From a virus (Duplodnaviria; Caudoviricetes), in the IMG/VR virus record IMGVR_UViG_3300008116_000046, positions 1 through 58,460 of that record: a stretch of 58,460 bases of DNA; one strand, given 5' to 3'. The position numbers and the translations under genes are program-made. The notes beneath the pieces are model-generated. The model was given only the letters and a program-made list of their open reading frames with translations. It searched no databases and was not told where the DNA came from. Positions 6,618 to 40,764 of this stretch are shown in pieces (position 1 is the first letter of the stretch; each line of letters begins with the position of its first letter).

Positions 6618-6688
6618 GGGGAATTAGTTAAACGGTATAACGGGTGCTTTGCAAGCACTTATTAGGAGTTCGATTCTCCTATTCTCCA
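6618..6688 (+). tRNA. tRNA-Ala(UGC)
   Basis: Acceptor GGGGAAT/ATTCTCC with G3:U70; anticodon arm GGTGC-TTTGCAA-GCACT; T arm AGGAG-TTCGATT-CTCCT; CCA not encoded. Confidence 0.93.
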
Positions 6689-7231: not shown

Positions 7232-7303
7232 GGGCACATAGTTAAGCGGATATAACCTTCGCCTTCTAAGCGAATGTCCCTGGTTCGATTCCAGGTGTGC
7301 CTG
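7232..7303 (+). tRNA. tRNA-Arg(UCU)
   Basis: Acceptor GGGCACA/TGTGCCT; anticodon arm TTCGC-CTTCTAA-GCGAA; T arm CCTGG-TTCGATT-CCAGG; CCA not encoded. Confidence 0.93.
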
Positions 7304-7324
7304 CTACTCTTTATTCATTCAAAA

Positions 7325-21405: not shown

Positions 21406-21964
21406 AATGATTTCTCTTCCTAATCCAATGATTGATTCTGTAGAACTTCATTCCACTCTTTTTGAACTCTGCAAAGAGAATGATGAATTACTCGAACAAA
21501 TTCTAGATGAATATGTAAGTTCTCTTAACAATGATGAATTGAATCATCTAGAAGACTTCCTGGTAAACAACTTTGGCAATGACTGAGGACAAAATGTACA
21601 ATCAAGTTCAGATTACTTATCAAACTCCCTATGGCAATCAAGAATGGAGGTTTCAATCTTTCCCTAATGTAAGAGAAGCACAATCAATGGTTGATTTTTA
21701 TAGGTCTTGTGGTTCGCCTGCTAAACTTGTAGAAGATAATGATGACTGAATTGATTTTTAGATTCACTCTTGAAGAACTCAATGTCCTTCAAGATATTCT
21801 TTCATTCTTTGATGGCAATGATTATGAAGATGATTTAGATGTAGAGAATTATCAGTCCCTATTCAACAAGGTAATGTCTAACTGATGAAAAAGAAAACTA
21901 AAATCAATCTGCTGTCAAAAGCAATCAACGGTAAAGAACTTCTCATTATCCTAAACTCCCTGAA

Positions 21965-22165
21965 ATGATTCTCCTTCAAAAACAAGATTACGGTTGCATC
22001 TTTACGATTGACCCTGATTCAAAAGAATTGTATTATGCTCCTATCTACAAAGACAATACTGTAAATCTAAATGAATTTGCACCTGTTGATCTTGCTGATG
22101 TAGATGATGAGTATGATGTACTCACAATTCAAAAAGAACTGATTCAACTTACTATTAACAACTGA
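21965..22165 (+). CDS. Hypothetical protein (ELYYAPI)
   Basis: Clean ORF. Confidence 0.65.
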   Translation: MILLQKQDYGCIFTIDPDSKELYYAPIYKDNTVNLNEFAPVDLADVDDEYDVLTIQKELIQLTINN

Positions 22166-22376
22166 TGAACGATTCAACACTTGATCTTTTCTGCCAGCAT
22201 GAAGATGAAAATTATGCTGATGAATATGCAATGGAGATTGAAAGGAAATGTGCTGAATTAGAAATTACTGTCGATTATTACTTGATGGAGTTTATTTAAG
22301 TTGTTATATTAAATGTATTAAAAAACATATGTAAGTGTTTTGAATTGCTGATAAATATCTGATTCTTATCACTTAT

Positions 22377-22425
22377 TAAAACCCTTATAAACTCCTATAA
22401 ATTAAGTTCTTAAAACCCTTATAAA
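22377..22425. repeat. Direct repeat TAAAACCCTTATAAA in an AT-rich tract
   Basis: Exact 15-bp copies at 22377 and 22411; partial copies near 22394, 22568 and 22653. Confidence 0.7.
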
Positions 22426-22454
22426 TGCTGGTTTTTGTAGTGATCTTGGGCTGT

Positions 22455-22512
22455 ATTCTATCACAACACCACTGTTTTGTCAATACCCCCCGGACACTCC
22501 AAAAACTGGCAC
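22455..22512 (-). promoter_or_regulatory. Inverted palindrome-promoter element 17
   Basis: Minus strand: GTGCCAG-N8-GTGTCCG; TTGACA (22483-22478)-17 bp-TAGAAT (22460-22455) with TG extension; same 30-bp palindrome to -10 gap. Confidence 0.8.
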
Positions 22513-22654
22513 ACCCTGATAAGAATCACAAACGCTCTGAGACACCTCTATATGCCTCCACAGCACGCTTATAAACACTCTCAGGGGTGAGACTACCGAA
22601 TAGCACTGATTCGCTCTTATTTTAGTTAGGGTTTCATAACACAAAATGAAACCT

Positions 22655-22662
22655 TATAAATA
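22655..22662 (+). promoter_or_regulatory. Late promoter TATAAATA with no downstream ORF
   Basis: Consensus match directly after hairpin GGTTTCAT/ATGAAACC (22630-22653). Confidence 0.5.
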
Positions 22663-22936
22663 AATCATCTATTTGAATTCATTAGAGCAGCTCTTGAACT
22701 TTCCTACGGGACCAAAAAGGTAACAATCTGACAGAAGACAATAGAACTTACACATTATGAGAGATTGATTATTATCAAAGAGGGAGTTAGAACACGGTCT
22801 CCGGCACAATAAAATCGTTAAGATGATTATATCTTAGAAATCCAAACAGCGGCACATTCGAATAAATCAGCATTCTCTGGATGATAAGTTTTCTATGCAA
22901 AACTTTGAAATTTGTGAGAAGGTTTTGTTGTGTTTA

Positions 22937-23246
22937 TTCGTTATTAGATAAGACACCGTACAGAACCATCAGAATCAAACAGACAATGAGATTACATCTC
23001 AGAACTTGTTCGTGATTAGATAAGATTCGTACAGAGATTTGATAATGCGAACTGATGAGAATTAAGAACTCATAAGTTTGTTCGTGATTAGATAAGATTC
23101 GTATAGAGCATAACAATATAACACTGCTGTTATATTCTAATCTGATAATTCATTCGTGTTTAGATAAGATTCGTATTGGAGAATTGGTTGTATAAGTCTT
23201 CCGCGCACTTACAGATAGAAAGTATTCGTGTATAATTAAGATTCGT
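22937..23246. repeat. Interspaced repeat array: 5 copies of TTCGTGATTAGATAAGATTCGTA-like repeat, 72-bp period, unique spacers
   Basis: Repeat starts 22937, 23009, 23081, 23153, 23225; copies 2 and 3 identical over 26 bp. Confidence 0.85.
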
Positions 23247-23259
23247 TGTAGGGAATAAC

Positions 23260-23288
23260 TTGACGGGTAGAGTAGGGTCTGGTAGAAT
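23260..23288 (+). promoter_or_regulatory. Sigma70 promoter
   Basis: TTGACG-17 bp-TAGAAT with TG extension. Confidence 0.75.
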
Positions 23289-23329
23289 TCAACAGTAGAG
23301 TTTATTCGTTCCTCCGTTCTTTCTCTCTT

Positions 23330-23497
23330 ATGGCAACTGCTTCTCTCACAGCACAAAAGAATAAGTATCGCATCACGTTAGAACTCAACGTGAATGAAGA
23401 TTTTAATCCACATCAGATTAACTGGAACAAACTCTTTGAACTTGATCGTAATGAACAGGTGAAGAGTTATGTAGAAGATCTCAACGTGCGTTGGTAA
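23330..23497 (+). CDS. 55-aa hypothetical protein (KYRITLEL...DFNPHQINW)
   Basis: Translated by hand; has its own promoter. Confidence 0.7.
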   Translation: MATASLTAQKNKYRITLELNVNEDFNPHQINWNKLFELDRNEQVKSYVEDLNVRW

Positions 23498-23990
23498 TTA
23501 GAATACTCTTCAAATCGCCCTAAGTGTATTATACTCAGCGTCAGTAAGGTACATCGCCTGATAGATGTTTCGTTTATTATTATTACTTTGTCTGATTGTT
23601 TATATCACTTGGGGCAACTTAATTCTTTATAGTTATTATTGTTCGTCGTTAATTGGCAGCAGTTCGTATAAAGAATAGGCAGTTCTTTATGTATAAGTAG
23701 GGTTTTTGTTGGGAGTTAGTGTAAAGAACTGCGTTGTTTTATAGTAATAACGCAGTGATTGGGGGCAGTTAGTATAAACAATGACGAATAATGATAGTTA
23801 TTCGTTGTCAGTTGTTTATTCGTTATAGCAGTTATTATGTTTTATTGTTAATTGTTTATATTTTGCGTTGCCCCCCGTTATGAAAAATCGATAAGTCCCT
23901 AACCTACAGTGTATGTCTTTTTCGACCTCTATCTCACTCTCATAAAAAAAAAAATTTCCCAGAAAAAAATGGCACCAAAAAGCAAATAAA

Positions 23991-24131
23991 ATGAAACACC
24001 GCCCATATTGGAGTTTCTGGAAAGTAGTCTTTGCGGGGTGGCTGATACGCTATCCGGGGAAAATGCTGAAAATCTTTGGCGTTCCGCTTGGAATTCTGAC
24101 TGTTATGATATATAATGCAGTGACCAAATAA
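23991..24131 (+). CDS. 46-aa membrane peptide (PYWSFWKVVFAGWLIRYP)
   Basis: Translated by hand. Confidence 0.55.
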   Translation: MKHRPYWSFWKVVFAGWLIRYPGKMLKIFGVPLGILTVMIYNAVTK

Positions 24132-24153
24132 AAAATTCCCGAAAAATTTTTTT

Positions 24154-24354
24154 ATGAGAAATCAAGAAAAGATATATCACATATATGCAAAGGATAAGTG
24201 CATATATCACAGTCTTCCAGAGGAAAAATTTTCTGAGGTCTGGGAGATGCTACACAGGATGGTTGATTTGCTTGGGAAAGACATAAACAAAGATGATTTA
24301 CAATATGAATCTTTGTTTGTGAATAAAGAGGTTGTATTAAATTCTTCTCATTGA
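24154..24354 (+). CDS. Hypothetical protein (YHIYAKDKC)
   Basis: Clean ORF. Confidence 0.65.
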   Translation: MRNQEKIYHIYAKDKCIYHSLPEEKFSEVWEMLHRMVDLLGKDINKDDLQYESLFVNKEVVLNSSH

Positions 24355-24380
24355 CAATCGAATATATACAGTGTTAATAT
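24351..24380 (+). promoter_or_regulatory. Sigma70-like promoter
   Basis: TTGACA-18 bp-TAATAT with TG extension, upstream of ATG 24404. Confidence 0.55.
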
Positions 24381-24403
24381 TGAAATGAAGGTTTATTAAC
24401 TTT

Positions 24404-25174
24404 ATGGCAAAAGGATTTACAGTAAAAGCAAAGGCACCAACAACATCTCAAGAACAAGAATGGGATTATGATGCTATTAAAGAGAGAATGAGAGGTAAAA
24501 GTATTGTCTTCTGTTTGCCCGGAAGAGGTTGCTCTTTTATTTTCCTCAAAGCATTTGTACAGTTGTGCTTTGACATCGTTCAAAATGGAATGAGTATTCA
24601 GATTTCTCAAGACTACTCATCAATGGTTAATTTCGCCCGTTGCAAATGTCTTGGAGCAAATGTTCTAAGAGGACCAAAGCAAATTCCTTGGGATGGAAGA
24701 CTTCAATATGATTATCAACTTTGGATTGATAGTGATATTGTTTTTGATTCTAACAAATTCTGGCAACTCTGTGATGTTGCTTTCCCTGCAGAAGGAGAGG
24801 AGCGTGAAATTGTCGCTGGTTGGTATGCAACTGAAGACGGACACACAACCTCTGTCGCGCACTGGTTGGAGGAAGATGACTTCCGCAAGAATGGTGGAGT
24901 TATGAATCATGAGACTGTAGAGTCCATCTCCAAGCGCCGTAAGCCATTCACTGTAGACTATACAGGTTTTGGTTGGGTTATGATTAAAAATGGAGTTTTT
25001 GAAAATCTTGAATATCCTTGGTTTGCTCCTAAGATGCAAGTCTTTGAATCTGGTGCAGTGCAAGATATGTGTGGGGAAGATGTTTCATTCTGTCTTGATG
25101 CAAAGGAAGAGGGATTTGAAATCTGGTGCGATCCTCGTATTAGAGTTGGTCATGAGAAAACTCGTATTATCTGA
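24404..25174 (+). CDS. Glycosyltransferase-like protein (GT-A fold)
   Basis: LWIDSD DxD motif; TGFGW; GEDVSFC; RVGHEK. Confidence 0.8.
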   Translation: MAKGFTVKAKAPTTSQEQEWDYDAIKERMRGKSIVFCLPGRGCSFIFLKAFVQLCFDIVQNGMSIQISQDYSSMVNFARCKCLGANVLRGPKQIPWDGRLQYDYQLWIDSDIVFDSNKFWQLCDVAFPAEGEEREIVAGWYATEDGHTTSVAHWLEEDDFRKNGGVMNHETVESISKRRKPFTVDYTGFGWVMIKNGVFENLEYPWFAPKMQVFESGAVQDMCGEDVSFCLDAKEEGFEIWCDPRIRVGHEKTRII

Positions 25175-26017: not shown

Positions 26018-26419
26018 ATGCCTTTAGAACGAGTAAGTAGTGGTTTTAAAGATATAAGTATGTCATTTCAGGCTAATCCTCTGAACAATGACCTTATTGG
26101 AATTAAAAATGAAACTGCAATTGCTCGTTCTATAAGAAATATTGTTTTCACTCAACCTGGAGAAAAATTTTTTAATCCCTTTTTTGGTTCTCAAGTAAAA
26201 AGATCGTTATTTGAAAACTTTGATGATCTTACATCTACTACAATTAAAGATGAAATAGAAAATTCTATTCGAAATTATGAACCAAGAGTCGAATTAATTG
26301 ATGTTAGTGCTGTCCCAGATTATGATAATAATACTTTTAACGTAACAATAATCTATAGAATTATTGGTGCAGATGTACAACCACAACAGTTAGAATTTGT
26401 ATTACTGCCTTCTAGATAA
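26018..26419 (+). CDS. gp25: Baseplate wedge subunit gp25
   Basis: IARSIRNIV.T.PGEKFF.P.FGS; NYEPRV; AATAAATA late promoter at 25990. Confidence 0.93.
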   Translation: MPLERVSSGFKDISMSFQANPLNNDLIGIKNETAIARSIRNIVFTQPGEKFFNPFFGSQVKRSLFENFDDLTSTTIKDEIENSIRNYEPRVELIDVSAVPDYDNNTFNVTIIYRIIGADVQPQQLEFVLLPSR

Positions 26420-28334: not shown

Positions 28335-31300
28335 ATGTCAGAAACCAGAATTAAATTCTCTAATATTGTCGAAAATCAACTTCCAGAATATATTAAAGAG
28401 GAATTTCCTCTTTTTTCAGAATTTTTAACGCAATATTATATTTCTAATGAATATCAAGGATCTCCTGCAGACTTGATTCAGAATATTGATAGATATACTA
28501 AAATTGACAACTCTGCAGAGAATGTAAGTGATGTAATTTTAAAGGAAGATATATCGTTTCTTGATGAGGTAATCACTGTTGATTTGGAGAAAAATCCAAC
28601 AGGAACTCAAGGATTTCCAAAATCATACGGATTATTACAAATTGATGACGAAATCATCACCTATAAAGAAACATCCCAAGATTCTTTCATTGGATGTGTT
28701 AGAGGATTTAGTGGCATTGTTTCTTATGAAGCAGAAGGATCTTCAGATGAAGTATTATTTAAAACTTCACTATCAGACACTCATAAATCTGGTTCAAAAA
28801 TAATTAATTTAAGTGTATTATTTTTAAATGAGTTCTTAAAAAAAACTAAATATCAACTTTTACCGGGATTTGAAGAAAAGAATTTATATTCTGCGGTTAA
28901 TGAAAAACTTTTTATCAAACAGGGACATGATTTTTATTCTTCAAAGGGAACAGACGAATCTTTTAACATATTATTTAAATGTCTTTATGGGCAAAGTGTA
29001 AAAATTATAAGACCAAAAGATTACTTATTTAAGCCGTCAGATGCTCAGTATAATGTAACCTATGATTTTGTCGTAGAATCTATAGACGGAAATCCATTAG
29101 ATTTGGTGAATTCTACTTTATATCAAGATGAATATGAATATGGAAATTATGCAAAATCATATGCTCCGATTACAAGTGTAGAAACACTTATCACAAAATC
29201 TGGCGAAAAATATTATAAATTAAGCGTAGATGCAGGATACTCCAGAGATATTAGCGTAGATGGTTCTGTTTATGGCGAGTTTTCAATTCACCCCAAAACT
29301 AAAGTAATTGATGATCATTCAGAACTATCAGACGTGATTACTGTAGACTCGACATTAGGATTTCCTAAAAATGGACATTTAAGTGTTGAGTATACAGATG
29401 GAACTTCTGGAATAGTTTCATACACATCAAAGTCAGTAAATCAATTTTATGGGTGTTTTAGTGTAAATGGAAGTAGTATTGGATCAATTTCAAATGGTTC
29501 TAAAGTATCAATAAACACCTTTGCGTATGGAAGTTCCCTAAATTCAGAAGTAATAAAGGTTAAAATTAATTCTATATTGAATCAAGTAGAATTAAAAAAT
29601 AACCCTGATAATTTTTATCATAACCCCAATACAAAAATATCAGTTAAATCTTTAGGATTTAATGAGGATAATAATTTTGCGTTCAATAATTGGATTTTCA
29701 ATACTTCCCCAACTTATAATAATTGTTCGGTAGAATTGACAAATTCTCAAGAGAAAAAATACACTATAACCACAAAATCAAATAATATTATAAGAAAAGG
29801 TGATTTTGTAGAAATTAAAAATATAAACTCTAATGTGAAAGTAGATGAAGTATTTAATAAAACCTCATTTTCGATCAAAGGAATTGATCTATCACCAAAT
29901 GTTCTATATTCAATAAGAAGAAAAATATCTAAGGTAAATATACAATCATCAAAGTACTCTAATCTATTAAAAATTTCATCAGATGTACAAAATATATACG
30001 AAAAAGATAATCAATTAATAGTTGCAACAAATTCTTTACCGAAGTATGAGGATTTGCCTTTAAGTACTAATGACTTTTCAGTCACTGGCAATTTTATTGG
30101 AATTAGTACAATACAAATAGAAGGTGGTCATTATTTTGAGAGCGGAGATATAGTATATTTCACTCCAGCAAATAATGAGAAAGCCCAAAATTTACTTGAG
30201 GAAGGAATTTATTTCGTAAACAGACAAAACGATACTCAAATTAACTTGGGTAAAAGTAGATCATCAATTTATAAATCAGATTTTGTTGAATTAAATTTAG
30301 ATGAAAATTCTACCTATGATGATGCAGACGGGTGCAAAATAGAATTTTTTAATTTTGCTTCAAAGTCCCTAAATGCTCAAAAACTACTTAGAGTAATTCC
30401 TACACCAACAAACGACAGTAATGATTATGAGTCTTTTCCTGGAGCAATTGGAATATTAATAAACGGAACAGAAATATTCAATTATAAATCTACGGATAAA
30501 ATATATTATGGACAAATTGAATCTATAGAGATATTGTCTTCTGAAAATGATTATGATGTAATAAATCCACCCATTTTAAAAGTAGAAGATTCTTTAGGAA
30601 GTGGAGTATCTGGATATTGCTCGGTTGAGGGAATCTTAGCAGATATTGAAGTTATAGATCCTGGATTTGATTACGTAGAAACACCCATAATATCCATTAC
30701 AGGAGGAAACGGCACCGGTGCCAATGCTGTAGCAAATATCAAGTTAGTTGACCATGAAGTCTTATTTGACGCTCAAAAAAATGTAACCACAGGAAATTCA
30801 ACTGCATCAAAAATAGGGTTTTCTACTTATCATAAATTTAGAAATGGCGAAAGAGTAATTTACAAGACTAATGGATATTCTTCAGTTGGAGGCATATCTA
30901 CTAATGCTTCATACTATGTGTCAGTAAAATCACCAACAGAGATTCAACTTCATTCTAATATAGAACAATTTAATTCTGGAATTGCAATATCTTTTACTTC
31001 TCTGGGAGTAGGGGAACATAAAATTTTAGCATATGATAAAAAAATTACTGTAGGATCTATTAGTATTATCGATCCAGGAAGCGGATATCAAAATAAAAAA
31101 AGAACTACTTCTTCTTCTGGGATTAGTACTTTCTCTGGATATGGAGCAATTTTTATAGAAAACCATGGATATGAATCTGGAGAAATATTAAAATATTCAG
31201 TGGAAGGAACTGCGATTTCTGGTTTATCTACAAATAAAGAATACTTCATAACAAAACTGAATGAAGATCGTTTTACTCTTTCGGAAGTTGGCGTAGGAAT

Positions 31301-34300
31301 TACAGAGAAAGATTTTTATTACAAATCAGCACAGTATATTAAATTTAATTCTGTTGGGGTTGGTACTCATATTTTCAATTATCCAGAAATAAATGTAAGT
31401 GTTATTGGAGAAATTGGAGTATCTACTGTAGGTGGATCAATAACAAAGGATGTTTTTAAATCTAGAGTAAATCCAAAGTTTAGAGGAAAAGTTTCTTCTA
31501 TTCATCTTAACAATAAAGGAACTAATTATGGATCTCCGGATATTTTAAATTTCAATAGATTACCTGAAATTTCTTTAGAATCTGGTTCTGGAGCAGTGTT
31601 AAGTCCTATCATAAAAGAAGGAAGAATAGTAGATGTCTCCATTATTTCCTCAGGACAGGATTATAACTCTTCTCCCGTCATTTCAGTGATAGGTGATGGA
31701 ATTGGTGCAGTTTTAAATCCAATAGTAAGTGGAGGATCTATAATTTCTGTTAAAGTTATAGAAAGTGGATTTGGGTATAGTCAAAGCGGAACACAAATAA
31801 CTGTGCTAGCAAATGGCAGCGGAGCTAAATTATATCCAAAGATTCAAACATGGACTATCAATTTAGTAGAAAGATTTTTAAAATCTTTTAGTCAGTTAGA
31901 TGATGGCGCATTATTTAAATCAATTTCTAAAGAAGATGAATTGCAGTATGGACATTTGTATTATCCAAGAAAATTTAAGGAAATTTTGAATGATAATACA
32001 AATCCAAATATTTTATCACACTCTCCTTTAATAGGATGGGCATACGATGGAAATCCCATATATGGTCCTTATGGATATAATAAAAAAAATGGTAGTGGTG
32101 GAATAGTTCAATTAAACTCAGGATACTTACTAAAAACATCTGCTCAAAATAATAGACCAGAATTTCCATTAGGATTTTTTATAGAAGATTATGAGTATAA
32201 AAACAAAAATGATGAAAATTGTCTCGATGAGTACAATGGAAGATTTTGTATTACTCCAGAATTTCCCCTAGGAGTATATGCTTATTTTTCTACATTAGAT
32301 TTAACTACATCTAGCGAATTTAATGGATATAAAAAACCAAAATTCCCATATTTTGTAGGAAATTTCTACCGCTCAAAACCAAATGGATTTAATTTTGTTT
32401 CAGGTTCAACTCAAGAAAAACTTGATTTGAATGAAATCGAATGTTTAAGAAATACAAATTCTTATGGATTGGATGATAAAAATATTATCTATGAATATTT
32501 GAATACTCAAGATTATAAAATACAATTCTCTGAAGTTAAATCCATTTCTCCGGGATATATTGAAAAGGTAGAAATATTAAATTCAGGAGAAAATTACCGG
32601 GTAGGAGATAATATAATATTTGATAACCAAGGAACATCTGGTTATAATGCTGCCGCAAAAGTCTCTAAAGTTTTTGGAAAAGCGATACAAAATATAAGTG
32701 TAACAACGACTAGTGTTAGTAATGTTGAATTCTATCCAGATTTTAGAAATAATTCATTTTTAGGAATTTTTAAAGACCCACATCAGTTTAAAGATGATGA
32801 AGTAGTAACAATATCTGGATTGAGTACTACAACTTATACTTTTGATGGATTGCACTTAATTGAGGTCCCAAGCAATTTCTTAGTACTAAGAGAAAATGTA
32901 GGTAGTGTTTCTTCCACGGGAATAGTAACTTATTTTTCTGTCTCTGGTAATATTGATAATTTTAAATCTAACGACATTTTAGGAATAGGAACTGAAAAAG
33001 TTAGAGTTTTAAATGCTGATAATTTATCTTCTAGAATAAGAGTTTTAAGGTCTGTTTACGGAACTGTTGGTTCTGCCCATTCAGCACTGGAGGTATTAGA
33101 GGAAAAATCAAGAAAAATAATATTCCAAAATCAATATTCGCCAAAATTCGAATATAAACTAAATGATGAACTCTATTTTAATCCAAAAGATTCTTTAGGA
33201 TTGGGTGTTGGAATTGGATATACTTTAAATTTTTCAAATCCAGGAAGTGGAGCAACAACATTGTTAATTCCAAGCAAATCAGTTTATTTTCCAAATCATG
33301 GATTAAAAACTGGAGATGAGTTAATATATTCTTCCAATGGAGGATCTACCATACAAGTCTCTATAAATGGATCTTCAAATTTTTCTTTATCCAATAATAC
33401 AAAACTTTTTGTAGCAAAGATTTCTGATGATATTATAGGAGTTTCGACGGTTAAGGTAGGAATTGGTAGTACAGGTGGATTTGTTGGGATTACTAGTGCA
33501 ACAAAAAATTCTACAACTTTGTATTTTTCTGGTATAGGAACTGGAACTAATCATAGTTTTAAAACCAATTATGAAAAAATATATGGAACGGTGTCAAAAA
33601 ATGTTGTTACTGTATCCACATCAAGCACTCATGGATTAACAACTAATGACATAGTATCCATAGATGTAAATCCAAAGACATCAACATCAGTAATTGTAAA
33701 ATATGATGATCAAAAAAGAAGAGTTATTATAAATCCAAAGAATTTTATATCTTCAGGAGTTAGTACTTTGAATAGTACTATTACTATTGATGATCACAGA
33801 TTTGTCACAGGGCAAAAAATAATTTACAAAACAGATACCTCAACACAAAATTTAACCAATAATGAAATTTATTACATTTTAGTTTTAGATGAAAATACTA
33901 TAAAATTATGTGATTCTTATTATGACTCTATTTCTCCAGACCCAAAAACAATAAAAATAACTTCTGTTTCTAATGGATCGATTTCCCCAATTAATCCGTT
34001 AATAAAATTATATAAAGAATCTGATGTTACTTTTGATTTATCGGATTCTTCTCTAGCATATACAGCAAATAACAATCAATATTCAGCCTTTAAATTTGAA
34101 CTTTATACTGACCCATATTTTAAAAATGTTTTCAATAAAACAGAAGAATATGAAGAATTTAATATTATTCAAGAAGGAACTGTTGGAATTAGTCAGAATG
34201 CAAAGGTCATTTTAAACATAAAGAGTGATTTTCCTGACAAATTATATTATCGATTAGTTCCAGTATTTACTGATGGAATTGTTTATCCAGAAAATAAAAG

Positions 34301-37300
34301 AGAAATTATAGTTGATAATTTATTAATAGAGTCAAATAATACCTTAGATTTATTGAGAAGTGGTTATATAGGAAATTACCCCGTTTTTGTTGGTGTTGGT
34401 TCTACTTCTTCTTTCGAGTACTTATTACCCAATAAACCAGAGGTTGTTTCGTATTCATCAACAATATCATCATTAAGTTATAGTACAAATTCTATCAGTG
34501 CTTTTGGTCCCATTTCAGAGATAAAGGTAGTTGATCCTGGGAAAAATTATTACTCTTTACCAAGAATTTCGAAAATAAATTCAATTAATGGAAAAGATGC
34601 TTTATTGGAAGGTTTTAGTGAGTCTATTGGAAAAATAAAAGGATATAAAATTAATAATATAGGATTTGATTTTTCTTCTGATACCACTTTAGTGCCAAAA
34701 AATTATCCTATACTAGTAGTAAAATTAGAATCTTTATATTCTATCGATACAATAACAGTTTCCTCCTTTGGAATAAATTATAATACTCCACCAAAATTGT
34801 TAGCAATAGATAGCAAAACTAATGAAGTTATACAAGATTTGGATTTGGAGTATTCCCTAAACAACACTGTCGTAAAAATAGTAAAAAATACTTCTACTTT
34901 GAGTGGGTTGATTCCAAAAATAATACCAATAGAAAATAACAATGGATTTAAAATAAACTCCATAGAGTTTAATTCTACTACCAAACTTGTTACAATTACT
35001 TTTCCATATACTGGAGATTTTCCATTCTCTCTTAATGATAAAATACTTATTGAAAATGCAAAGGTTTCTGACAGTGAAAGTAAAGGATATAATTCCGAAA
35101 ATTACAATTATGAACTATTCACTATAGAGCAATTAACCGTAGATGTTGGATTGGGTCAAGGAACATTAACCTATAGTTTAAAAGATTACTTAGAATCTGG
35201 AGAAGATCCTGGTGTTTTTGATAATATTAATTCTGTGGGTAGAATTATTCCGGAAAAATATTTCCCTTCATTTACTATTACGTTAAAAAGAGGTCAATAT
35301 TTAGTTGGAGAAAATATTAAATCAGAGTCATCACAAGAAAAAGAAGGTTATGTATCTGATTGGGACGAATATTCGGGTCTTTTAACTATTTCAAATCCAA
35401 CTAAGGAATTTCAAATTGGTGAAGTAATTCAGGGAGAATCTACTGGGGCAAAATCAAAAATTTTAAACATATACAAAACAGATTCTACAACTAATATTTC
35501 TTCAAAAACAAAGTTGAATAAAGGATGGAAACAAAATAGTGGATTTTTGAATGATGATATTCAAAAAATTCAAGATAGTTTCTATTATCAAAATTTTTCA
35601 TATTCAATAAAATCAAAAGTAGATTATGATACTTGGAAAGACTCTGTTTTAACTTTAAATCACCCCAAAGGGTTCAAAGTTTTTTCTGATTATCAATTAG
35701 AATCTACTCAATATGCTGGAATATCAACAACTAAACCATCTGATCTTTCCGTTACATTAGATATTTTTAGCAAATCGGATTTTAATACTTATTATTTTGA
35801 TCTTTCTTCAGAAAATATCTTCAATATAGACTCAAAATTAGTCTCAAATGAGATTATATTTAAAAATAAAGTAGTACAAGATTATATTTTATCATTCGGA
35901 AATAAAGTTCTTAGCATAGATGATATAAGTTCTCAATTTGATAGTAGTGATAATGTATCTAAAAAAGATTTTATTTTAACCAGTAACGATTATCCGATAT
36001 TTAAGAGAGTTTTTAAAGGAAATGATCAGTCTATCGTAGATACTACATCAGATACTATAGAAATAGAAAATCACTTTTTTGTTACTGGGGAAAAAATTTC
36101 CTACTTTAATGGAACAAATTCAGTATCCAATTCAATTGGAATTGCTTCTACTTACTTTGGAGTGGGAATAGGGACGACAAATAAATTACCAAATGAACTA
36201 TATGTAGTAAAAATAGACGATAATAAAATAAAGATATCGCGAAATGCAGAAGATGCGTTAAATTCTACACCAAAAACTTTAGATATCACTAGTGTCGGTA
36301 TAGGAACAACTCATTATTTTTCTTGCTTTAATCAAAATTCTAGAGTATTAATTTCTATAGATGGAATTATTCAATCTCCAATTACAATAACATCAGTGAA
36401 AAGTTCATTGTCTCAAAATATTTCAATATCGACAGATTTTGTTTATGCTACAGGAATTTCTTCATTTTTTAATGGAGATTTTATAAAAATTGATGACGAA
36501 ATAATGAAAATTAATTCCGTAGGTATTGGATCTACAAATTTAATAAAAGTAGATCGATCTTTATTAGGAACAGATCCAGAATCACATTCTCAAGGATCAA
36601 TAATTACAAAAATTATTGGAAACTATAACATAAATGAAAATACTATCAATTTTGCATCACCCCCTTTATCACTAGTAGATCCTTTAGACGCATTCTTAAC
36701 ACAAAAATCGAAATTCCACGGAAGATCTTTTATAAAATCTGGCAATCCTGACCAAAATAAAGATACATATAGCAATAATTATATTTTTGACGATATTTCA
36801 GATTCTTTTACTGGTATTTCCAGTGGATTTATTCTTAAAAACAATCAAACGAATGTTTCTGGAATATCAACAGATAATATAATGTTATTAATTAATAACA
36901 TTCCCCAGATACCATCAATAACAACAAACGAAATAACTCTAACAAATAATTATTATTTGTCTGAAGGATCTGGTGTTACTACAGTATTTTTTGTGGGTTC
37001 CAATAACATTCCAAATCAAACTGACATTAACACTGGGAATTTGCCCACAAAAGGAGTTATAGTATCTGTTGGATCTAGCGATAGTCTTGGATATCAACCA
37101 TTAGTTTCTGCGGGGGGCACTGTTATTGTTTCAATATCTGGAACGATTTCCTCAGTTTCAATTGGAAATAGTGGATCTGGATATAGATCAGGAATACAAA
37201 GTCCGATTAGGGTTGGTGTTATAACTCAATATGAACAAGATAATAAAATTACTTATATTGGAATAGCAACAGTAAGCAAAGGAAATATAGTTGGGGTATC

Positions 37301-39185
37301 TATAACTAATCCAGGATCTGGATACTCCCAATCTAATCCTCCTATATTAACTATTGATGACCCTCTACCTTATTCAAATATTCCACTCATTTATTCATCA
37401 CAGTCATCTGGCATAGGAACTCAAGCAAAAATTGATGTTATTGTTGGAAATGGATCCAGTATAATAAATTTTGAAATAAAGAACTTTGGTTATAACTATA
37501 AAAAAGGAGATATTTTAACTATTCCTATTGGTGGTACTATAGGAATTCCTACAGATACAACTAAACAATTTAAAGAATTTAATATTTTTGTTGAAGAAAT
37601 AAGATCCGATAAGTTCTCAGGATGGTTTATTGGTGGAATTAAAGTACTTGATAATATAAGTGGTCTTTTCGATGGGGTTAGAAAAAGATTTCCATTGTCT
37701 ATAGGAAATCAAAGATATTCTTTGATTTCTAACCAAGGATCAAAAATAAACCTTGAAAATAACCTACTAGTGTTCATAAATGATGTTTTGCAAGTTCCTG
37801 GCGAATCTTATAGTTTTACAAAAGGAGATAAAATAATTTTTAATGAAGCACCTAAAGGAAAATCTTCAGATAATGTAATTTCTGGAGATACTTGCAAAAT
37901 TCTTTTCTATACCGGAAATTCTGTTTATGACACAAATACAGTTGATGCTATAGAAACCATTAAAGAGGGCGATGAACTACAACTTTCATACGATATTTTT
38001 TCAAATCAACCACAAAGTTTAGAACAAAATAAAAGAACAATAACTACTTTATACTCAAATTCAGCAGAAACTGAATTATATTTTGGAGAAGGAATTTCAC
38101 AAGATCAAACTCTATATCGCCCAACATTTTGGAGAAAACAAACTGAAGATAAACTTATAGATTTTCTTATTGTTTCTAAAAATAGAGTAACTTATGAACC
38201 TGCAATATATCCAAGCGCATATATTATAAATTCAGTTGGTGTAAATTCAACCACTGTTTATGTTGATAATATAAGACCATTTTTCAATTCCCCCAAAGAA
38301 TCATCTACCGGCAATTTAAATTTCCAATATGAAGTGACTTTATTATCCAATGACACAACAGAATTTGCCAGAGCATCTTCTGTTGTATCTTCAGCAGGAA
38401 CAGTTACTTCAATTAATATTACGGATGCAGGTAGTGGTTATGTGTCTGCACCTTCTGTTATTTTAGAATCCCCAGTTGGTCTAGGAACTACTTTTAGAGC
38501 TTCGGCATCTTCGTCAATTAATGGAGGAAAAATATCAAATATTACAGTGACTTATGGCGGAAGTATGTATGAAACCACAAATCCACCTCAAGTTTTAATT
38601 GAACCACCTTCAATTAAAAAAGAAAAATGTATTGTATCTGATTATTTTGGAGATCATGGAATTATTACGGGTATTGCAACTACATCAATAGTTGGTGTTG
38701 CTGTTACTGGATTGGTATTTGATTTGTTCATACCAAATAATTCTTATCTTAGAAATAGTTCCATAAGTGGAACTGCAACTACTATAAGCGGAATTAAAAC
38801 CGGAGACTATTTCGTTGTTTATAATTCTAAAGTTGGAAATGGAGTAACTTCCTTAAATTCTACAGGAAGCATAGTTGGGGTCGGAACTTCAAGGTTAGAT
38901 AATGTTTATATCGCACGGTCAGTTTCTGTTGGGTCATCTTTTGTTCCTAGTGGAGGACAATCTTCAGTATTAAAAGTTGTAGTCAGTCTAGCGTCGTATA
39001 ATAATCTAACCGGATTAGGATTTAGTGATTTTTATGGAGAGTATAGTTGGGGTAAAATAGATCTACAACAAAGATCTTCTTCCAATGAATATTCCTCATA
39101 TAGAAATAATGGTATCATTGGATTGAGTACTAGTGCGGTTGTTATAAGATCCAATCCACTAAGATATGTTGGGTACGTTACGTAA
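28335..39185 (+). CDS. gp7: Giant baseplate wedge initiator, gp7-like (3616 aa)
   Basis: Between gp6 and gp8; QLPEYI..EFP.F; FYSSKGT..SF..LF; DSFYYQNFSYSIKS...HPKG; repeated beta modules. Confidence 0.8.
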   Translation: MSETRIKFSNIVENQLPEYIKEEFPLFSEFLTQYYISNEYQGSPADLIQNIDRYTKIDNSAENVSDVILKEDISFLDEVITVDLEKNPTGTQGFPKSYGLLQIDDEIITYKETSQDSFIGCVRGFSGIVSYEAEGSSDEVLFKTSLSDTHKSGSKIINLSVLFLNEFLKKTKYQLLPGFEEKNLYSAVNEKLFIKQGHDFYSSKGTDESFNILFKCLYGQSVKIIRPKDYLFKPSDAQYNVTYDFVVESIDGNPLDLVNSTLYQDEYEYGNYAKSYAPITSVETLITKSGEKYYKLSVDAGYSRDISVDGSVYGEFSIHPKTKVIDDHSELSDVITVDSTLGFPKNGHLSVEYTDGTSGIVSYTSKSVNQFYGCFSVNGSSIGSISNGSKVSINTFAYGSSLNSEVIKVKINSILNQVELKNNPDNFYHNPNTKISVKSLGFNEDNNFAFNNWIFNTSPTYNNCSVELTNSQEKKYTITTKSNNIIRKGDFVEIKNINSNVKVDEVFNKTSFSIKGIDLSPNVLYSIRRKISKVNIQSSKYSNLLKISSDVQNIYEKDNQLIVATNSLPKYEDLPLSTNDFSVTGNFIGISTIQIEGGHYFESGDIVYFTPANNEKAQNLLEEGIYFVNRQNDTQINLGKSRSSIYKSDFVELNLDENSTYDDADGCKIEFFNFASKSLNAQKLLRVIPTPTNDSNDYESFPGAIGILINGTEIFNYKSTDKIYYGQIESIEILSSENDYDVINPPILKVEDSLGSGVSGYCSVEGILADIEVIDPGFDYVETPIISITGGNGTGANAVANIKLVDHEVLFDAQKNVTTGNSTASKIGFSTYHKFRNGERVIYKTNGYSSVGGISTNASYYVSVKSPTEIQLHSNIEQFNSGIAISFTSLGVGEHKILAYDKKITVGSISIIDPGSGYQNKKRTTSSSGISTFSGYGAIFIENHGYESGEILKYSVEGTAISGLSTNKEYFITKLNEDRFTLSEVGVGITEKDFYYKSAQYIKFNSVGVGTHIFNYPEINVSVIGEIGVSTVGGSITKDVFKSRVNPKFRGKVSSIHLNNKGTNYGSPDILNFNRLPEISLESGSGAVLSPIIKEGRIVDVSIISSGQDYNSSPVISVIGDGIGAVLNPIVSGGSIISVKVIESGFGYSQSGTQITVLANGSGAKLYPKIQTWTINLVERFLKSFSQLDDGALFKSISKEDELQYGHLYYPRKFKEILNDNTNPNILSHSPLIGWAYDGNPIYGPYGYNKKNGSGGIVQLNSGYLLKTSAQNNRPEFPLGFFIEDYEYKNKNDENCLDEYNGRFCITPEFPLGVYAYFSTLDLTTSSEFNGYKKPKFPYFVGNFYRSKPNGFNFVSGSTQEKLDLNEIECLRNTNSYGLDDKNIIYEYLNTQDYKIQFSEVKSISPGYIEKVEILNSGENYRVGDNIIFDNQGTSGYNAAAKVSKVFGKAIQNISVTTTSVSNVEFYPDFRNNSFLGIFKDPHQFKDDEVVTISGLSTTTYTFDGLHLIEVPSNFLVLRENVGSVSSTGIVTYFSVSGNIDNFKSNDILGIGTEKVRVLNADNLSSRIRVLRSVYGTVGSAHSALEVLEEKSRKIIFQNQYSPKFEYKLNDELYFNPKDSLGLGVGIGYTLNFSNPGSGATTLLIPSKSVYFPNHGLKTGDELIYSSNGGSTIQVSINGSSNFSLSNNTKLFVAKISDDIIGVSTVKVGIGSTGGFVGITSATKNSTTLYFSGIGTGTNHSFKTNYEKIYGTVSKNVVTVSTSSTHGLTTNDIVSIDVNPKTSTSVIVKYDDQKRRVIINPKNFISSGVSTLNSTITIDDHRFVTGQKIIYKTDTSTQNLTNNEIYYILVLDENTIKLCDSYYDSISPDPKTIKITSVSNGSISPINPLIKLYKESDVTFDLSDSSLAYTANNNQYSAFKFELYTDPYFKNVFNKTEEYEEFNIIQEGTVGISQNAKVILNIKSDFPDKLYYRLVPVFTDGIVYPENKREIIVDNLLIESNNTLDLLRSGYIGNYPVFVGVGSTSSFEYLLPNKPEVVSYSSTISSLSYSTNSISAFGPISEIKVVDPGKNYYSLPRISKINSINGKDALLEGFSESIGKIKGYKINNIGFDFSSDTTLVPKNYPILVVKLESLYSIDTITVSSFGINYNTPPKLLAIDSKTNEVIQDLDLEYSLNNTVVKIVKNTSTLSGLIPKIIPIENNNGFKINSIEFNSTTKLVTITFPYTGDFPFSLNDKILIENAKVSDSESKGYNSENYNYELFTIEQLTVDVGLGQGTLTYSLKDYLESGEDPGVFDNINSVGRIIPEKYFPSFTITLKRGQYLVGENIKSESSQEKEGYVSDWDEYSGLLTISNPTKEFQIGEVIQGESTGAKSKILNIYKTDSTTNISSKTKLNKGWKQNSGFLNDDIQKIQDSFYYQNFSYSIKSKVDYDTWKDSVLTLNHPKGFKVFSDYQLESTQYAGISTTKPSDLSVTLDIFSKSDFNTYYFDLSSENIFNIDSKLVSNEIIFKNKVVQDYILSFGNKVLSIDDISSQFDSSDNVSKKDFILTSNDYPIFKRVFKGNDQSIVDTTSDTIEIENHFFVTGEKISYFNGTNSVSNSIGIASTYFGVGIGTTNKLPNELYVVKIDDNKIKISRNAEDALNSTPKTLDITSVGIGTTHYFSCFNQNSRVLISIDGIIQSPITITSVKSSLSQNISISTDFVYATGISSFFNGDFIKIDDEIMKINSVGIGSTNLIKVDRSLLGTDPESHSQGSIITKIIGNYNINENTINFASPPLSLVDPLDAFLTQKSKFHGRSFIKSGNPDQNKDTYSNNYIFDDISDSFTGISSGFILKNNQTNVSGISTDNIMLLINNIPQIPSITTNEITLTNNYYLSEGSGVTTVFFVGSNNIPNQTDINTGNLPTKGVIVSVGSSDSLGYQPLVSAGGTVIVSISGTISSVSIGNSGSGYRSGIQSPIRVGVITQYEQDNKITYIGIATVSKGNIVGVSITNPGSGYSQSNPPILTIDDPLPYSNIPLIYSSQSSGIGTQAKIDVIVGNGSSIINFEIKNFGYNYKKGDILTIPIGGTIGIPTDTTKQFKEFNIFVEEIRSDKFSGWFIGGIKVLDNISGLFDGVRKRFPLSIGNQRYSLISNQGSKINLENNLLVFINDVLQVPGESYSFTKGDKIIFNEAPKGKSSDNVISGDTCKILFYTGNSVYDTNTVDAIETIKEGDELQLSYDIFSNQPQSLEQNKRTITTLYSNSAETELYFGEGISQDQTLYRPTFWRKQTEDKLIDFLIVSKNRVTYEPAIYPSAYIINSVGVNSTTVYVDNIRPFFNSPKESSTGNLNFQYEVTLLSNDTTEFARASSVVSSAGTVTSINITDAGSGYVSAPSVILESPVGLGTTFRASASSSINGGKISNITVTYGGSMYETTNPPQVLIEPPSIKKEKCIVSDYFGDHGIITGIATTSIVGVAVTGLVFDLFIPNNSYLRNSSISGTATTISGIKTGDYFVVYNSKVGNGVTSLNSTGSIVGVGTSRLDNVYIARSVSVGSSFVPSGGQSSVLKVVVSLASYNNLTGLGFSDFYGEYSWGKIDLQQRSSSNEYSSYRNNGIIGLSTSAVVIRSNPLRYVGYVT

Positions 39186-39213: not shown

Positions 39214-40764
39214 ATGTCGGCAATTATAACTGATCAATTTAGAATATTAAATGCTAAAAATTTTTTGAGTTCAATTTCTTCCACTCAAGATTCATACTAT
39301 ACCTTTGTAGGTCTACCAAACCCATCAGAGGTATTATCTACTTGGGATTCAGATCCCCCTTCCCACAAAGATAGTTTTAATGATGAGAATATTTGTTGGG
39401 AAACAATGATCTCATTGAAAAAAATTAATAGTAATGATGTTAGATTAGTAATACCAAAAATAACTTGGTCTTCTGGAAGAGTTTATGATTATTATAGACA
39501 TGATTATACAATTTCAAATCGTCCTGAAATATCAGATTCTTCTACTTTATATACTTCATTTTTTTACGTATTAAATAGCGATTATCGTGTCTATATTTGC
39601 CTAGAGAACGGGACAAATCCAGAAAATGAAAAAGGGAAACCCTCATTAGATGAACCAACATTTGTAGACTTAGAACCAAGACCAGCCGGATCTAGTAATG
39701 ATGGGTATATTTGGAAATATTTGTATACAATAAAACCTTCAGATATTGTAAAATTCGAATCCACAGATTATATACCAGTTCCTTCGGATTGGGAATCAAA
39801 TGTAGAAAATGCTGCGATTAAGAATAATTCAACAGATGGGTCAATTAAAACTATAATTATAACAAATAGAGGTGTCTCTGTAGGATCTGGAAATCAAATT
39901 TACAAAAATGTTCCTATAAAAGGAGATGGAACTGGGGCAGAATGCACAATAGTAACTAATTCAGAACAAAAAGTAGAATCAATAACAATAACAAATCAAG
40001 GATCAGGATATACCTTTGGCAGTGTTGATTTAATTGCGGGTGGAATAACCACTTTTGATACTAGACCGACATTTGACGTTATAATTCCACCTAAAGGAGG
40101 TCATGGATTTGATATTTACAGAGAATTGGGGGCATTTAATGTATTAATTTATTCTAGATTGGAAAATGATGTTCAAAATCCAGATTTTATAACAGGAAAC
40201 CAAATTGCAAGAGTTGGAATTATTAACAGACCAAGAGCATCTAATGGTTCTATATTATCATCAGATAAGGCAAGTGCTACTTACGCATTAAAATTAACCG
40301 GTTCTTCATACAATACCGCATCTTTTACTCCAGATTCTGTAATAACGCAAACAATAGGAACCGGAGTTACTGCAGCAGGAAGAGTAGTTAGTTACGATCA
40401 AAACACGGGTGTTTTAAAATACTGGCAAGATAGATCTATAGCAGGAATTAACACTGACGGTTCTCAACAAACAAATCCCATATATGGATTTAATTTGAAC
40501 GAATTTACAAGTTCAATATCATCTGGAGGTAGTTTAACAATTACTGGAAATACTGGAGGAACTTTGAATATTGATTCTGGATTTACTGGCATAGATACAA
40601 CAATAAATAATAAAAAATACTATTTGGGACAAAGTTTTGTTGGCGGAGTTGCTCAACCAGAAGTTCAAAAATATTCTGGAAATATAATTTATGTTGATAA
40701 TAGGCCATCTATTACCAGATCAACAAATCAAAAAGAAGATATTAAAGTCATTTTGCAGTTTTAA
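39214..40764 (+). CDS. gp8: Baseplate wedge subunit gp8
   Basis: MSAIITDQFRI.NA; YRVYICL.N; DGYIWKYLYTI; QKEDIKVILQF; late promoter at 39184. Confidence 0.92.
   Translation: MSAIITDQFRILNAKNFLSSISSTQDSYYTFVGLPNPSEVLSTWDSDPPSHKDSFNDENICWETMISLKKINSNDVRLVIPKITWSSGRVYDYYRHDYTISNRPEISDSSTLYTSFFYVLNSDYRVYICLENGTNPENEKGKPSLDEPTFVDLEPRPAGSSNDGYIWKYLYTIKPSDIVKFESTDYIPVPSDWESNVENAAIKNNSTDGSIKTIIITNRGVSVGSGNQIYKNVPIKGDGTGAECTIVTNSEQKVESITITNQGSGYTFGSVDLIAGGITTFDTRPTFDVIIPPKGGHGFDIYRELGAFNVLIYSRLENDVQNPDFITGNQIARVGIINRPRASNGSILSSDKASATYALKLTGSSYNTASFTPDSVITQTIGTGVTAAGRVVSYDQNTGVLKYWQDRSIAGINTDGSQQTNPIYGFNLNEFTSSISSGGSLTITGNTGGTLNIDSGFTGIDTTINNKKYYLGQSFVGGVAQPEVQKYSGNIIYVDNRPSITRSTNQKEDIKVILQF

Follow-up and report, generated by a model that had tools for sequence, protein, structure and literature searches.

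The DNA under study, hereafter the window, is a stretch of 58,460 nt from a virus (IMG/VR record IMGVR_UViG_3300008116_000046), and the element in question is an array of five short repeats, 72 bp apart, in a large non-coding region at 22937-23247. We propose, with confidence and doubt in about equal parts, that this array is a DNA-level set of five spaced putative docking sites for a sequence-specific DNA-binding protein, iteron- or operator-like in kind, within an origin-like control region. The array locus is unique, its oriented bipartite cores have lineage-specific middles and its half-site recurs as a palindrome, which together point to a putative protein-binding array. The last unit overlies a -10 element, the spacing is strict with a filler that is free in sequence, and divergent promoters, DnaA boxes and AT-rich repeats are features of the window or of the same region in relatives; these point to sites of the iteron or operator type. 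The phage is a T4-like cyanomyovirus (Kyanoviridae) of freshwater; its large terminase is 86.5% identical to the counterpart in Synechococcus phage S-SCSM1.

The repeat units and their fixed length

Each unit carries a core of the form TTCGT-N12-TTCGT. In the window sequence and with a repeat finder, the five cores start at 22937, 23009, 23081, 23153 and 23225, with start-to-start distances of 72, 72, 72 and 72 bp. The inner three copies match the 23-mer with 0, 0 and 1 mismatch, and a match of any kind was obtained in 0 of 100 dinucleotide shuffles. The core of unit 2 (TTCGTGATTAGATAAGATTCGTA, 23009..23031, plus strand as for all cores) has no mismatch and lies in a conserved block at 23006-23036; that of unit 3 (23081..23103) is identical to it by pattern match and repeat finder, and that of unit 4 (23153..23175) has one mismatch. 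The outer units are degenerate. The core of unit 1 (TTCGTTATTAGATAAGACACCGTA, 22937..22960) has a G>T change and a second half longer by 1 nt, and it remains in the 72-bp register. The core of unit 5 (23225..23247) keeps both TTCGT pentamers, differs at 5 of 23 positions, and has as its middle the hexamer TATAAT, which is the -10 of a promoter-like site; this degenerate form is also kept in relatives. A previous reading of the window, made from its letters without database searches (the sequence-only reading), had claimed five copies at 72-bp steps, degenerate outer copies and mutually unrelated spacers, and all three claims were borne out.

When units and lineages were compared, the conserved core exceeded the 23 bp described earlier and extended over ~27-35 bp, (AAAGTTCA)TTCGTGATTAGA-N6-TCGTATAGA. 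The N6 middle is shared by most or all full units of one array and is lineage-specific (ATAAGTCT in locus L070, TAATGT in L076, TAAGAT in the main clade), which fits co-evolution of the site with a cognate protein. The half-site also forms a perfect inverted repeat 550 bp downstream, ACGAATAA (23784-23791) and TTATTCGT (23798-23805) with N6 between them, as expected of a dimer operator, and this palindrome is invariant in most aligned lineages. The Box A 13-mer, at 0-1 mismatch, was found in the array only (array-bearing contigs of 156, 76 and 71 kb). The hexamer ATTCGT reached 10-14 copies per 1.2 kb at the array locus only in four genomes, where 0.5-0.7 copies would be expected.

The four spacers between the cores (22961..23224) are ~48-49 bp long, free in sequence and fixed in length. 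Those of the window are mutually unrelated, with an in-register identity of 0.305 against 0.283 +/- 0.064 for shifted controls. Because the spacers differ from each other, the array escaped Tandem Repeats Finder.

Two other accounts of the repeat were discarded. A coding repeat (72 bp being 24 codons) disagrees with the core, which stops all three plus-strand frames, with the minus-strand open reading frames (ORFs) of just 60-68 aa, and with the periods of 69, 70, 71 and 73 bp in relatives. As to units resembling transfer RNAs (tRNAs), ARAGORN gave two tRNAs in the window, tRNA-Ala(TGC) at 6618-6688 and tRNA-Arg(TCT) at 7232-7304, both distant from the array. The core segment TGATTAGATAA (23014-23024, present in each full core) contains TGA, TAG and TAA, one in each plus-strand frame; these triple-frame stops may be due to chance in AT-rich DNA.

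An exact-pattern scan of viral contigs detected the core in 28 of them, and multiple copies were always 72 bp apart. We also collected 61 loci anchored on a conserved 55-aa ORF downstream of the array, 58 of which could be assessed (L038 begins without upstream sequence, and L096 and L097 comprise the end of the ORF only). TTCGT-type units were present in 39 of the 58, in the same place and orientation. In the main clade, 71 of 72 intervals were 72 bp and the remaining one 73 bp; many of these loci are near-identical, and ~7 lineages are represented. Nine more distantly related loci gave 44 intervals, of which 40 measured 69-74 bp; the exceptions (82, 87, 89 and 93 bp) were all adjacent to the promoter. 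Copy number varied by whole units, from 3 to 7. Cultured relatives in which the small ORF is present (S-SM2, Bellamy, P-TIM68, S-SCSM1 and S-B05) were without the array, and blastn of 22300-23700 against 50,697 phage records gave no match at E <= 1e-5.

Spacers are orthologous by position across lineages, with an ungapped identity between lineages of 0.33-0.49. Aligning them requires several compensating gaps that leave the total unit length unchanged; in the contigs of relatives, for example, spacer 4 has lost 3 bases and gained 3. The neighbouring non-coding flank, from the element TATAAATAAA to the first core, is 154, 185, 282, 292 or 547 bp long. Unit length is thus kept while spacers approach randomness and the flank ranges over 154-547 bp, and we therefore conclude that the length of the spacers, rather than their sequence, is what is under selection. 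The suggestion of the sequence-only reading that selection acts on geometry is supported by these intervals and identities, and the period it described persists in related phage contigs.

Could the array be a neutral relic, that is, an old 72-bp tandem duplication in decay whose cores stay alike through gene conversion alone? The degenerate outer units, the whole-unit differences in copy number and a faint in-register signal in the spacers of some lineages (0.386 against 0.303 in L016) would all suit such a history. Across arrays, however, the in-register identity of 0.29-0.40 is barely higher than that of shifted controls (0.28-0.34), and decayed duplication of the spacers was rejected on this ground. 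Core and unit length also persist at a spacer identity of 0.33-0.49 where adjacent non-coding DNA changes by hundreds of bases, place and orientation are kept in 39 of the 58 assessable loci, and gene conversion confined to ~30 bp that never homogenises the spacers is unlikely. We give very little credence to this explanation.

The geometry resembles that of clustered regularly interspaced short palindromic repeats (CRISPR), and the sequence-only reading had offered a guide or decoy small-RNA array as one option. CRISPR arrays and phage mini-arrays likewise have interspaced repeats, degenerate at the ends, with unique spacers that hardly vary in length; the values here (cores of 23-31 bp, spacers of 41-49 bp, a 72-bp period) are inside the CRISPR range, for which repeats of about 23-47 bp are typical, and in some lineages a promoter lies upstream of the array. 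In contrast to CRISPR arrays, the spacers here are inherited vertically and position by position, changing by substitution, with no turnover at the leader end. No protospacer match was obtained in the 50,697 phage records, a phage collection with host genomes left out, and the exact repeat pattern (two free positions) had no match in the genomes of 185,579 prokaryote species, a scan that also served as the comparison with host CRISPR repeats. The claim that no cas-like gene is recognisable held among the families listed for 88 window ORFs (the first 25 of 70 PADLOC families and the first 25 of 28 Pfam families; two giant ORFs at 28335-39185 and 40771-48480 were left out), none of which is a Cas family. 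The repeat itself has no hairpin and is found nearby as single sites and as the palindrome, and the constant length is here kept by selection instead of an integration ruler. A CRISPR-like mini-array, or a Cas-independent array of guide or decoy RNAs, is largely refuted by these results and seems to us extremely improbable.

The spacers had further been said to hold a hairpin each. Inverted repeats do exist in them, but as a meaningful feature they did not stand: they are weakly above chance and are conserved neither in position among relatives nor as a consensus structure. Folding z-scores of the four window spacers were -0.74, -2.40, -1.22 and +1.40. Over 24 spacers from six lineages, some of them orthologues and hence not independent, folding was mildly below that of shuffled sequences (mean z ~ -0.55, 5 with p<0.05). 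RNAalifold on 58 unique unit junctions gave 0.0, with no consensus structure, and a candidate GAATGAA/TTCATTC stem at the junctions paired no better than slid controls. The best Rfam matches had 20-21 bits against gathering scores of 45-50 (E = 0.08-0.5).

Promoters, alternative repeats and DnaA boxes of the control region

The array stands in the first of the largest non-coding gaps of the window (22300-23330 and 23498-23990), which follow densely packed small plus-strand ORFs at 1-22300. The left boundary is PL, a leftward promoter on the minus strand (TTGACA-17-TAGAAT, 11/12 with TG, 22455..22483) with no ORF behind it; its product may be a primer RNA or some non-coding RNA. S-SM2, Bellamy and S-SCSM1 all share PL, and conservation in marine cyanophages extends to the first ~20 bases transcribed from it (GCnCGCYAAGATCAC, to 22441). 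A stringent 17-mer variant of the PL element was found in 87 viral contigs, once per contig. To the left of PL, the window has AT-rich AACCCTTATAAAT repeats. Repeated AACCCTTATAAA(T/C) motifs, which resemble late promoters, were also seen just left of PL and around it (22380-22426, 22565-22576 and 22649-22662), and relatives carry 3-4 copies of CCTTATAAATG just left of PL.

To the right of the array is PR, an early promoter of the sigma-70 type on the plus strand (TTGACG-17-TAGAAT with TG, 23260..23288). It starts 13 bp past the last core, as the sequence-only reading had stated, and is conserved in all array-bearing loci. A second plus-strand promoter-like site, P1 (CTTACA-17-TATAAT, 23208..23236), takes the middle of unit 5 as its -10; relatives have TTTACA-17-TATAAT at 11/12. 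Behind PR, a further TTCGT (23305..23309) in the conserved 5' leader GTTTATTCGTTC extends the series 80 bp past unit 5. Upstream of the array is a T4-type late-promoter-like TATAAATA on the plus strand (22655..22662), which reads toward the array from a distance of 282 bp. This element had been compared to a leader. Its position and its conservation in relatives, as TATAAATAAA, stood, and the role of a CRISPR leader did not: TATAAATA may well transcribe the array, and this implies no CRISPR leader.

The first gene behind PR is the conserved 55-aa ORF (23330..23497, plus strand; phrog_12516, function unassigned). It has no Pfam family and no PDB match at E <= 0.001, and its AlphaFold2 model is a beta-hairpin with a short helix (predicted local distance difference test score of 75). 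It is followed by a highly conserved non-coding block of ~490 bp (23498..23990, plus strand), which is more conserved than the adjacent ORF. The block contains three GCAGTTnGTATAAAGAA-type repeats at 23652, 23705 and 23758 (53-bp period, 23652-23782), a hairpin at 23729-23755 whose differences between lineages look compensatory, the palindrome described above, a direct TTCGT copy at 23819, a conserved CCCTAACCTACA and a long A-tract.

Promoters so close to the repeats also suggest a different explanation, in which each ~72-bp unit combines, or once combined, an upstream element with a promoter of the sigma-70 type; units would follow at about one polymerase footprint, allowing several host polymerases to load next to each other upon infection, as on a tandem promoter array or an RNA-polymerase sink. 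The footprint of an open complex is ~70-75 bp, near the period of 69-74 bp. PR itself lies inside the spacer that would follow unit 5, L065 and L066 have a perfect TTGACA-17-TATAAT in a unit spacer at a register near that of PR (offset 29 against 31), and in one orthologous unit of seven lineages the core TAGATA is followed by nATAAT at 17-18 bp (10/12 matches). On the other hand, a -10-like hexamer stood at the fixed register in 9 of 25 non-redundant units, where shuffles gave 6.1 +/- 2.0 and 113 of 1000 reached 9. Promoter-like sites were not raised in the region of the window (14 against an expected 11.9 +/- 3.1), and the best-conserved parts of the core, TTCGTGATTAG and TCGTAT, are unlike a -35 or a -10. 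We consider tandem promoters distinctly improbable.

Relatives without the TTCGT array have other repeat families between PL and PR, irregularly spaced. In L079, L081 and L091 the slot holds a palindromic ATCTCGACGAGAT in 6 copies, with 2 more ~1.3-1.6 kb downstream, and copies adjoin the -35 of PR. L082 and L090 have 8-9 copies of CTAGATTC, one of them within the PR spacer. In L092 there are five perfect DnaA boxes (342-682), again one within the PR spacer. Two array-bearing loci, L062 and L037, have DnaA boxes as well. Just left of PL, two TGTGGAAAA boxes at a distance of 21 bp occur both in S-SM2 and in L062. Perfect boxes are at 2767 and 2788 in L032 (S-SM2), at 1442 and 1463 in L062, at 832 and 864 in L037, and at 2172 and 2184 in L074.

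We counted perfect DnaA boxes of the host type (TTTTCCACA or TTATCCACA) in the 80 listed loci with a PL element (L116-L195). Between -600 and +700 of this element there were 58 boxes in 96.5 kb (0.60 per kb), and elsewhere in these loci 17 in 600 kb (0.028 per kb), that is, a ~20-fold enrichment beside PL. The near boxes were concentrated within 200 bp left of the PL element (56 of 58). At least one near box was present in 29 of the 80 loci and at least two in 23.

The window encodes gp25-, gp6- and gp8-like baseplate proteins, neck proteins, a tail sheath stabiliser and a T4-type large terminase. It is a 58-kb fragment with an estimated completeness of 27%. Downstream of the array, gp25 is at 26018 and gp6 at 26420, i.e. 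at ~3 kb. The two giant ORFs (28335-39185, 3616 aa; 40771-48480, 2569 aa) lie between the gp6-like ORF, a gp8-family baseplate ORF (39214-40764) and the neck genes. The segment 8936-19700 has a G+C content of 0.39-0.42, against 0.27-0.37 in the structural genes downstream of 26 kb; it encodes an N6/N4 DNA methyltransferase, an SF2 helicase, a Toprim-like protein, DUF2786/DUF7168, DUF6011 and DUF5983 proteins and a weak ArdA-like match, and it is common to the array-bearing contig G001 and mostly also to G003. Fourteen public DNA runs contained at least half of the sampled words of the window; most are labelled 'fungus metagenome' and the rest freshwater or lake water. Six RNA runs matching the window are labelled freshwater or lake water.

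Proposed docking sites: the putative complex and the evidence against it

In the reading that we prefer, the candidate site would be the bipartite ~27-bp core TTCGTGATTAGA-N6-TCGTATAGA, repeated in one orientation. The cores would be held ~24 nm apart (69-74 bp, here 72) by a filler that is free in sequence and selected for its length, within a large non-coding control region bounded by PL on the left and by PR of the conserved small gene on the right. The putative binder, probably phage-encoded and co-evolving with its site, would occupy the cores cooperatively and build a higher-order complex. This complex would end on the degenerate unit 5, where it would cover the P1 -10 at a position close to -60 of PR, and it would control early rightward transcription, the firing of an origin, or both, in the manner of iterons and initiators at the origins of plasmids and phages. 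The sequence-only reading had also named protein sites of an origin or packaging locus, phased by about seven helical turns. Protein sites of an origin-like locus are the part most consistent with the context; strict 7-turn phasing is doubtful, because lengths of 69-74 bp are all tolerated and the spacers have no 10.3-bp periodicity of A-tracts. Intrinsic bending or wrapping as a signal is likewise unsupported, given the same lack of A-tract periodicity.

Several observations weigh against the docking-site proposal. No DnaA box lies near the array of the window, even with one mismatch allowed. A search of the window for the binding protein did not find one: no helix-turn-helix, initiator, Rep or other DNA-binding family was among the families listed for the 88 ORFs. 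The 55-aa protein was rejected as the binder: it is conserved regardless of repeat class, its sequence does not track the class, and it has neither a family nor a fold match. Partner-protein profiling compared 80 window ORFs with three array-bearing contigs, and since the array phages are one clade, any clade-specific gene would correlate. A start of replication at this locus is deduced from context. At 69-74 bp, the units do not span a constant number of helical turns; AA/TT periodicity at 10-10.5 bp is absent from the spacers, which are depleted for it (z -1.9 to -3.1 over AA/TT and AA measures). Classical iterons, moreover, are 17-22 bp long and follow one another at steps of ~22 bp, about two helical turns, almost without filler, whereas the period here is 72 bp (69-74 in relatives) with ~45 bp of free filler. 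The motif is also biased in strand, with 15 of the 41 TTCGT copies of the window inside 22937-23819, all on the plus strand, and one ACGAA there. Consensus TTGACx-17-TAGAAT promoters lie ~25 nt upstream of unit 1 in L004, L069, L071 and L076, contigs from the RNA libraries of four studies cover the array at a depth similar to that of neighbouring genes, and the array is probably transcribed.

These last points lend some weight to an RNA-level element, in which the array would be transcribed from the late or an early promoter upstream, or through read-through. The repeated UUCGUGAUUAGA...UCGUAUAGA motif of the RNA would then offer several sites to an RNA-binding protein or nuclease, as platform or as sponge, or be cut into ~72-nt units. 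The conserved TATAAATA upstream, the lack of any terminator-like site in 21900-24500 and the recurrence of TTCGT in the 5' leader (23305) and in the downstream non-coding region (the inverted repeat at 23784-23805 and the copy at 23819) fit such an element as well. One RNA-library contig ends at 22668, ~6 nt past TATAAATA, where a start of the T4 late type would fall, and contigs of two other RNA studies both start at 22762. These ends may be transcript ends or assembly break points, and that at 22668 is a weak hint. It should be said that the contigs are assembled and indicate presence only, rather than transcription, strand or ends; DNA carry-over is possible, and uncovered parts are uninformative. 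Conserved structure and covariation were absent from the RNA analyses, with no Rfam match better than E = 0.08, and an unstructured RNA spacer does not explain a length constant to +/-2 nt amid randomised sequence. The perfect palindrome formed by the half-site and the palindromic, DNA operator-like repeats of other lineages in the same slot also speak for DNA. We regard an RNA-level element as unlikely.

Beyond the docking sites as such, we advance a wider model tentatively, as a minority prospect. The array may supply the cis component of an origin or early-switch module not described before, a 'ruler' nucleoprotein complex in which a co-evolving phage protein sits on bipartite cores ~24 nm apart, with about one DNA superhelical turn per unit. 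The complex would act together with the conserved antisense promoter of primer type and, in numerous relatives, with DnaA boxes of the host; lineages would swap repeat-and-protein pairs in one slot. In the literature searched (full text, without supplements or subscription papers), we found no description of DnaA boxes in cyanophages, nor of cyanophage replication origins, iterons, early regulatory circuits or the motif string. If this model holds, cyanomyoviruses would have their first defined replication origin and a first case in which host DnaA is used.

Among the viruses that infect aquatic primary producers, T4-like cyanophages are some of the most abundant, and the locus is a concrete candidate in them: a unique, conserved 1.5-kb non-coding control region with divergent promoters common to many cyanomyovirus contigs, with lineage-specific repeats, and with host DnaA boxes beside PL in about a third of the sampled relatives. 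If it is an origin, it would link phage replication to the host initiator DnaA. The array is also an unusually clean natural case of selection that appears to act on spacing alone, which suits the study of how protein-DNA assemblies measure distance.

Comparison with known systems

By position and layout, the closest known analogue appears to be oriE of T4, a phage of the same family. Both loci lie upstream of the baseplate wedge gene 6 (in the T4 record, oriE at 79355 and gp6 at 81081, 1.7 kb apart; here the array at 22937-23247 and gp6 at 26420), and oriE is accompanied by the small early genes repEA and repEB. oriE depends on a sigma-70 promoter of the early mode, and its primer RNA runs against the late genes around it, on the minus strand (PMC3016281; T4 record). 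PL is similarly a minus-strand consensus promoter among plus-strand genes. Both loci have evenly spaced short direct repeats with unrepeated filler, those of T4 being of a 12-nt GTTGAAGGTAAT type every 24 bp in at least 6 copies, by our measurement; their role is given as still undefined in PMC3016281. Unlike the non-coding array here, the T4 repeats lie inside the coding sequence of gene 5, and therefore their 24-bp period could stem from a repeat in the peptide. The two periods are 72 bp here and 24 bp in T4, the cores ~27 and 12 nt, and there is no sequence similarity. No homologue of repEA or repEB was recognised among the ORFs (PHROG matches of unassigned function), and the T4 locus shares no sequence or protein homology with this one.

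Theta origins of the iteron type include P1 oriR, F, pSC101 and R6K gamma. As in these, the array has multiple direct repeats in the same orientation at a unique locus conserved among relatives, and its last repeat overlaps a promoter. The lineage-specific repeat sequence suggests a co-evolving initiator, and DnaA boxes and AT-rich repeats are nearby in relatives. Different from iteron origins are the lack of an adjacent Rep-type gene, the lack of DnaA boxes in the window and the setting in a lytic T4-like phage, which brings its own replisome. R6K is mentioned in PMC3016281.

Arrays of the operator, enhancer or centromere type also consist of repeated protein sites whose fixed spacing is larger than the site. 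The centromere-like sopC array of F has 12 units of 43 bp, each conserved over its whole length, whereas ~40% of the unit is conserved here, and a partition function would be unexpected in a lytic myovirus. With operator arrays, the locus shares a promoter-proximal site positioned to repress or activate: unit 5 overlies the P1 -10, and its centre falls at about -60 of PR. The array appears akin to known spaced protein-binding repeats.

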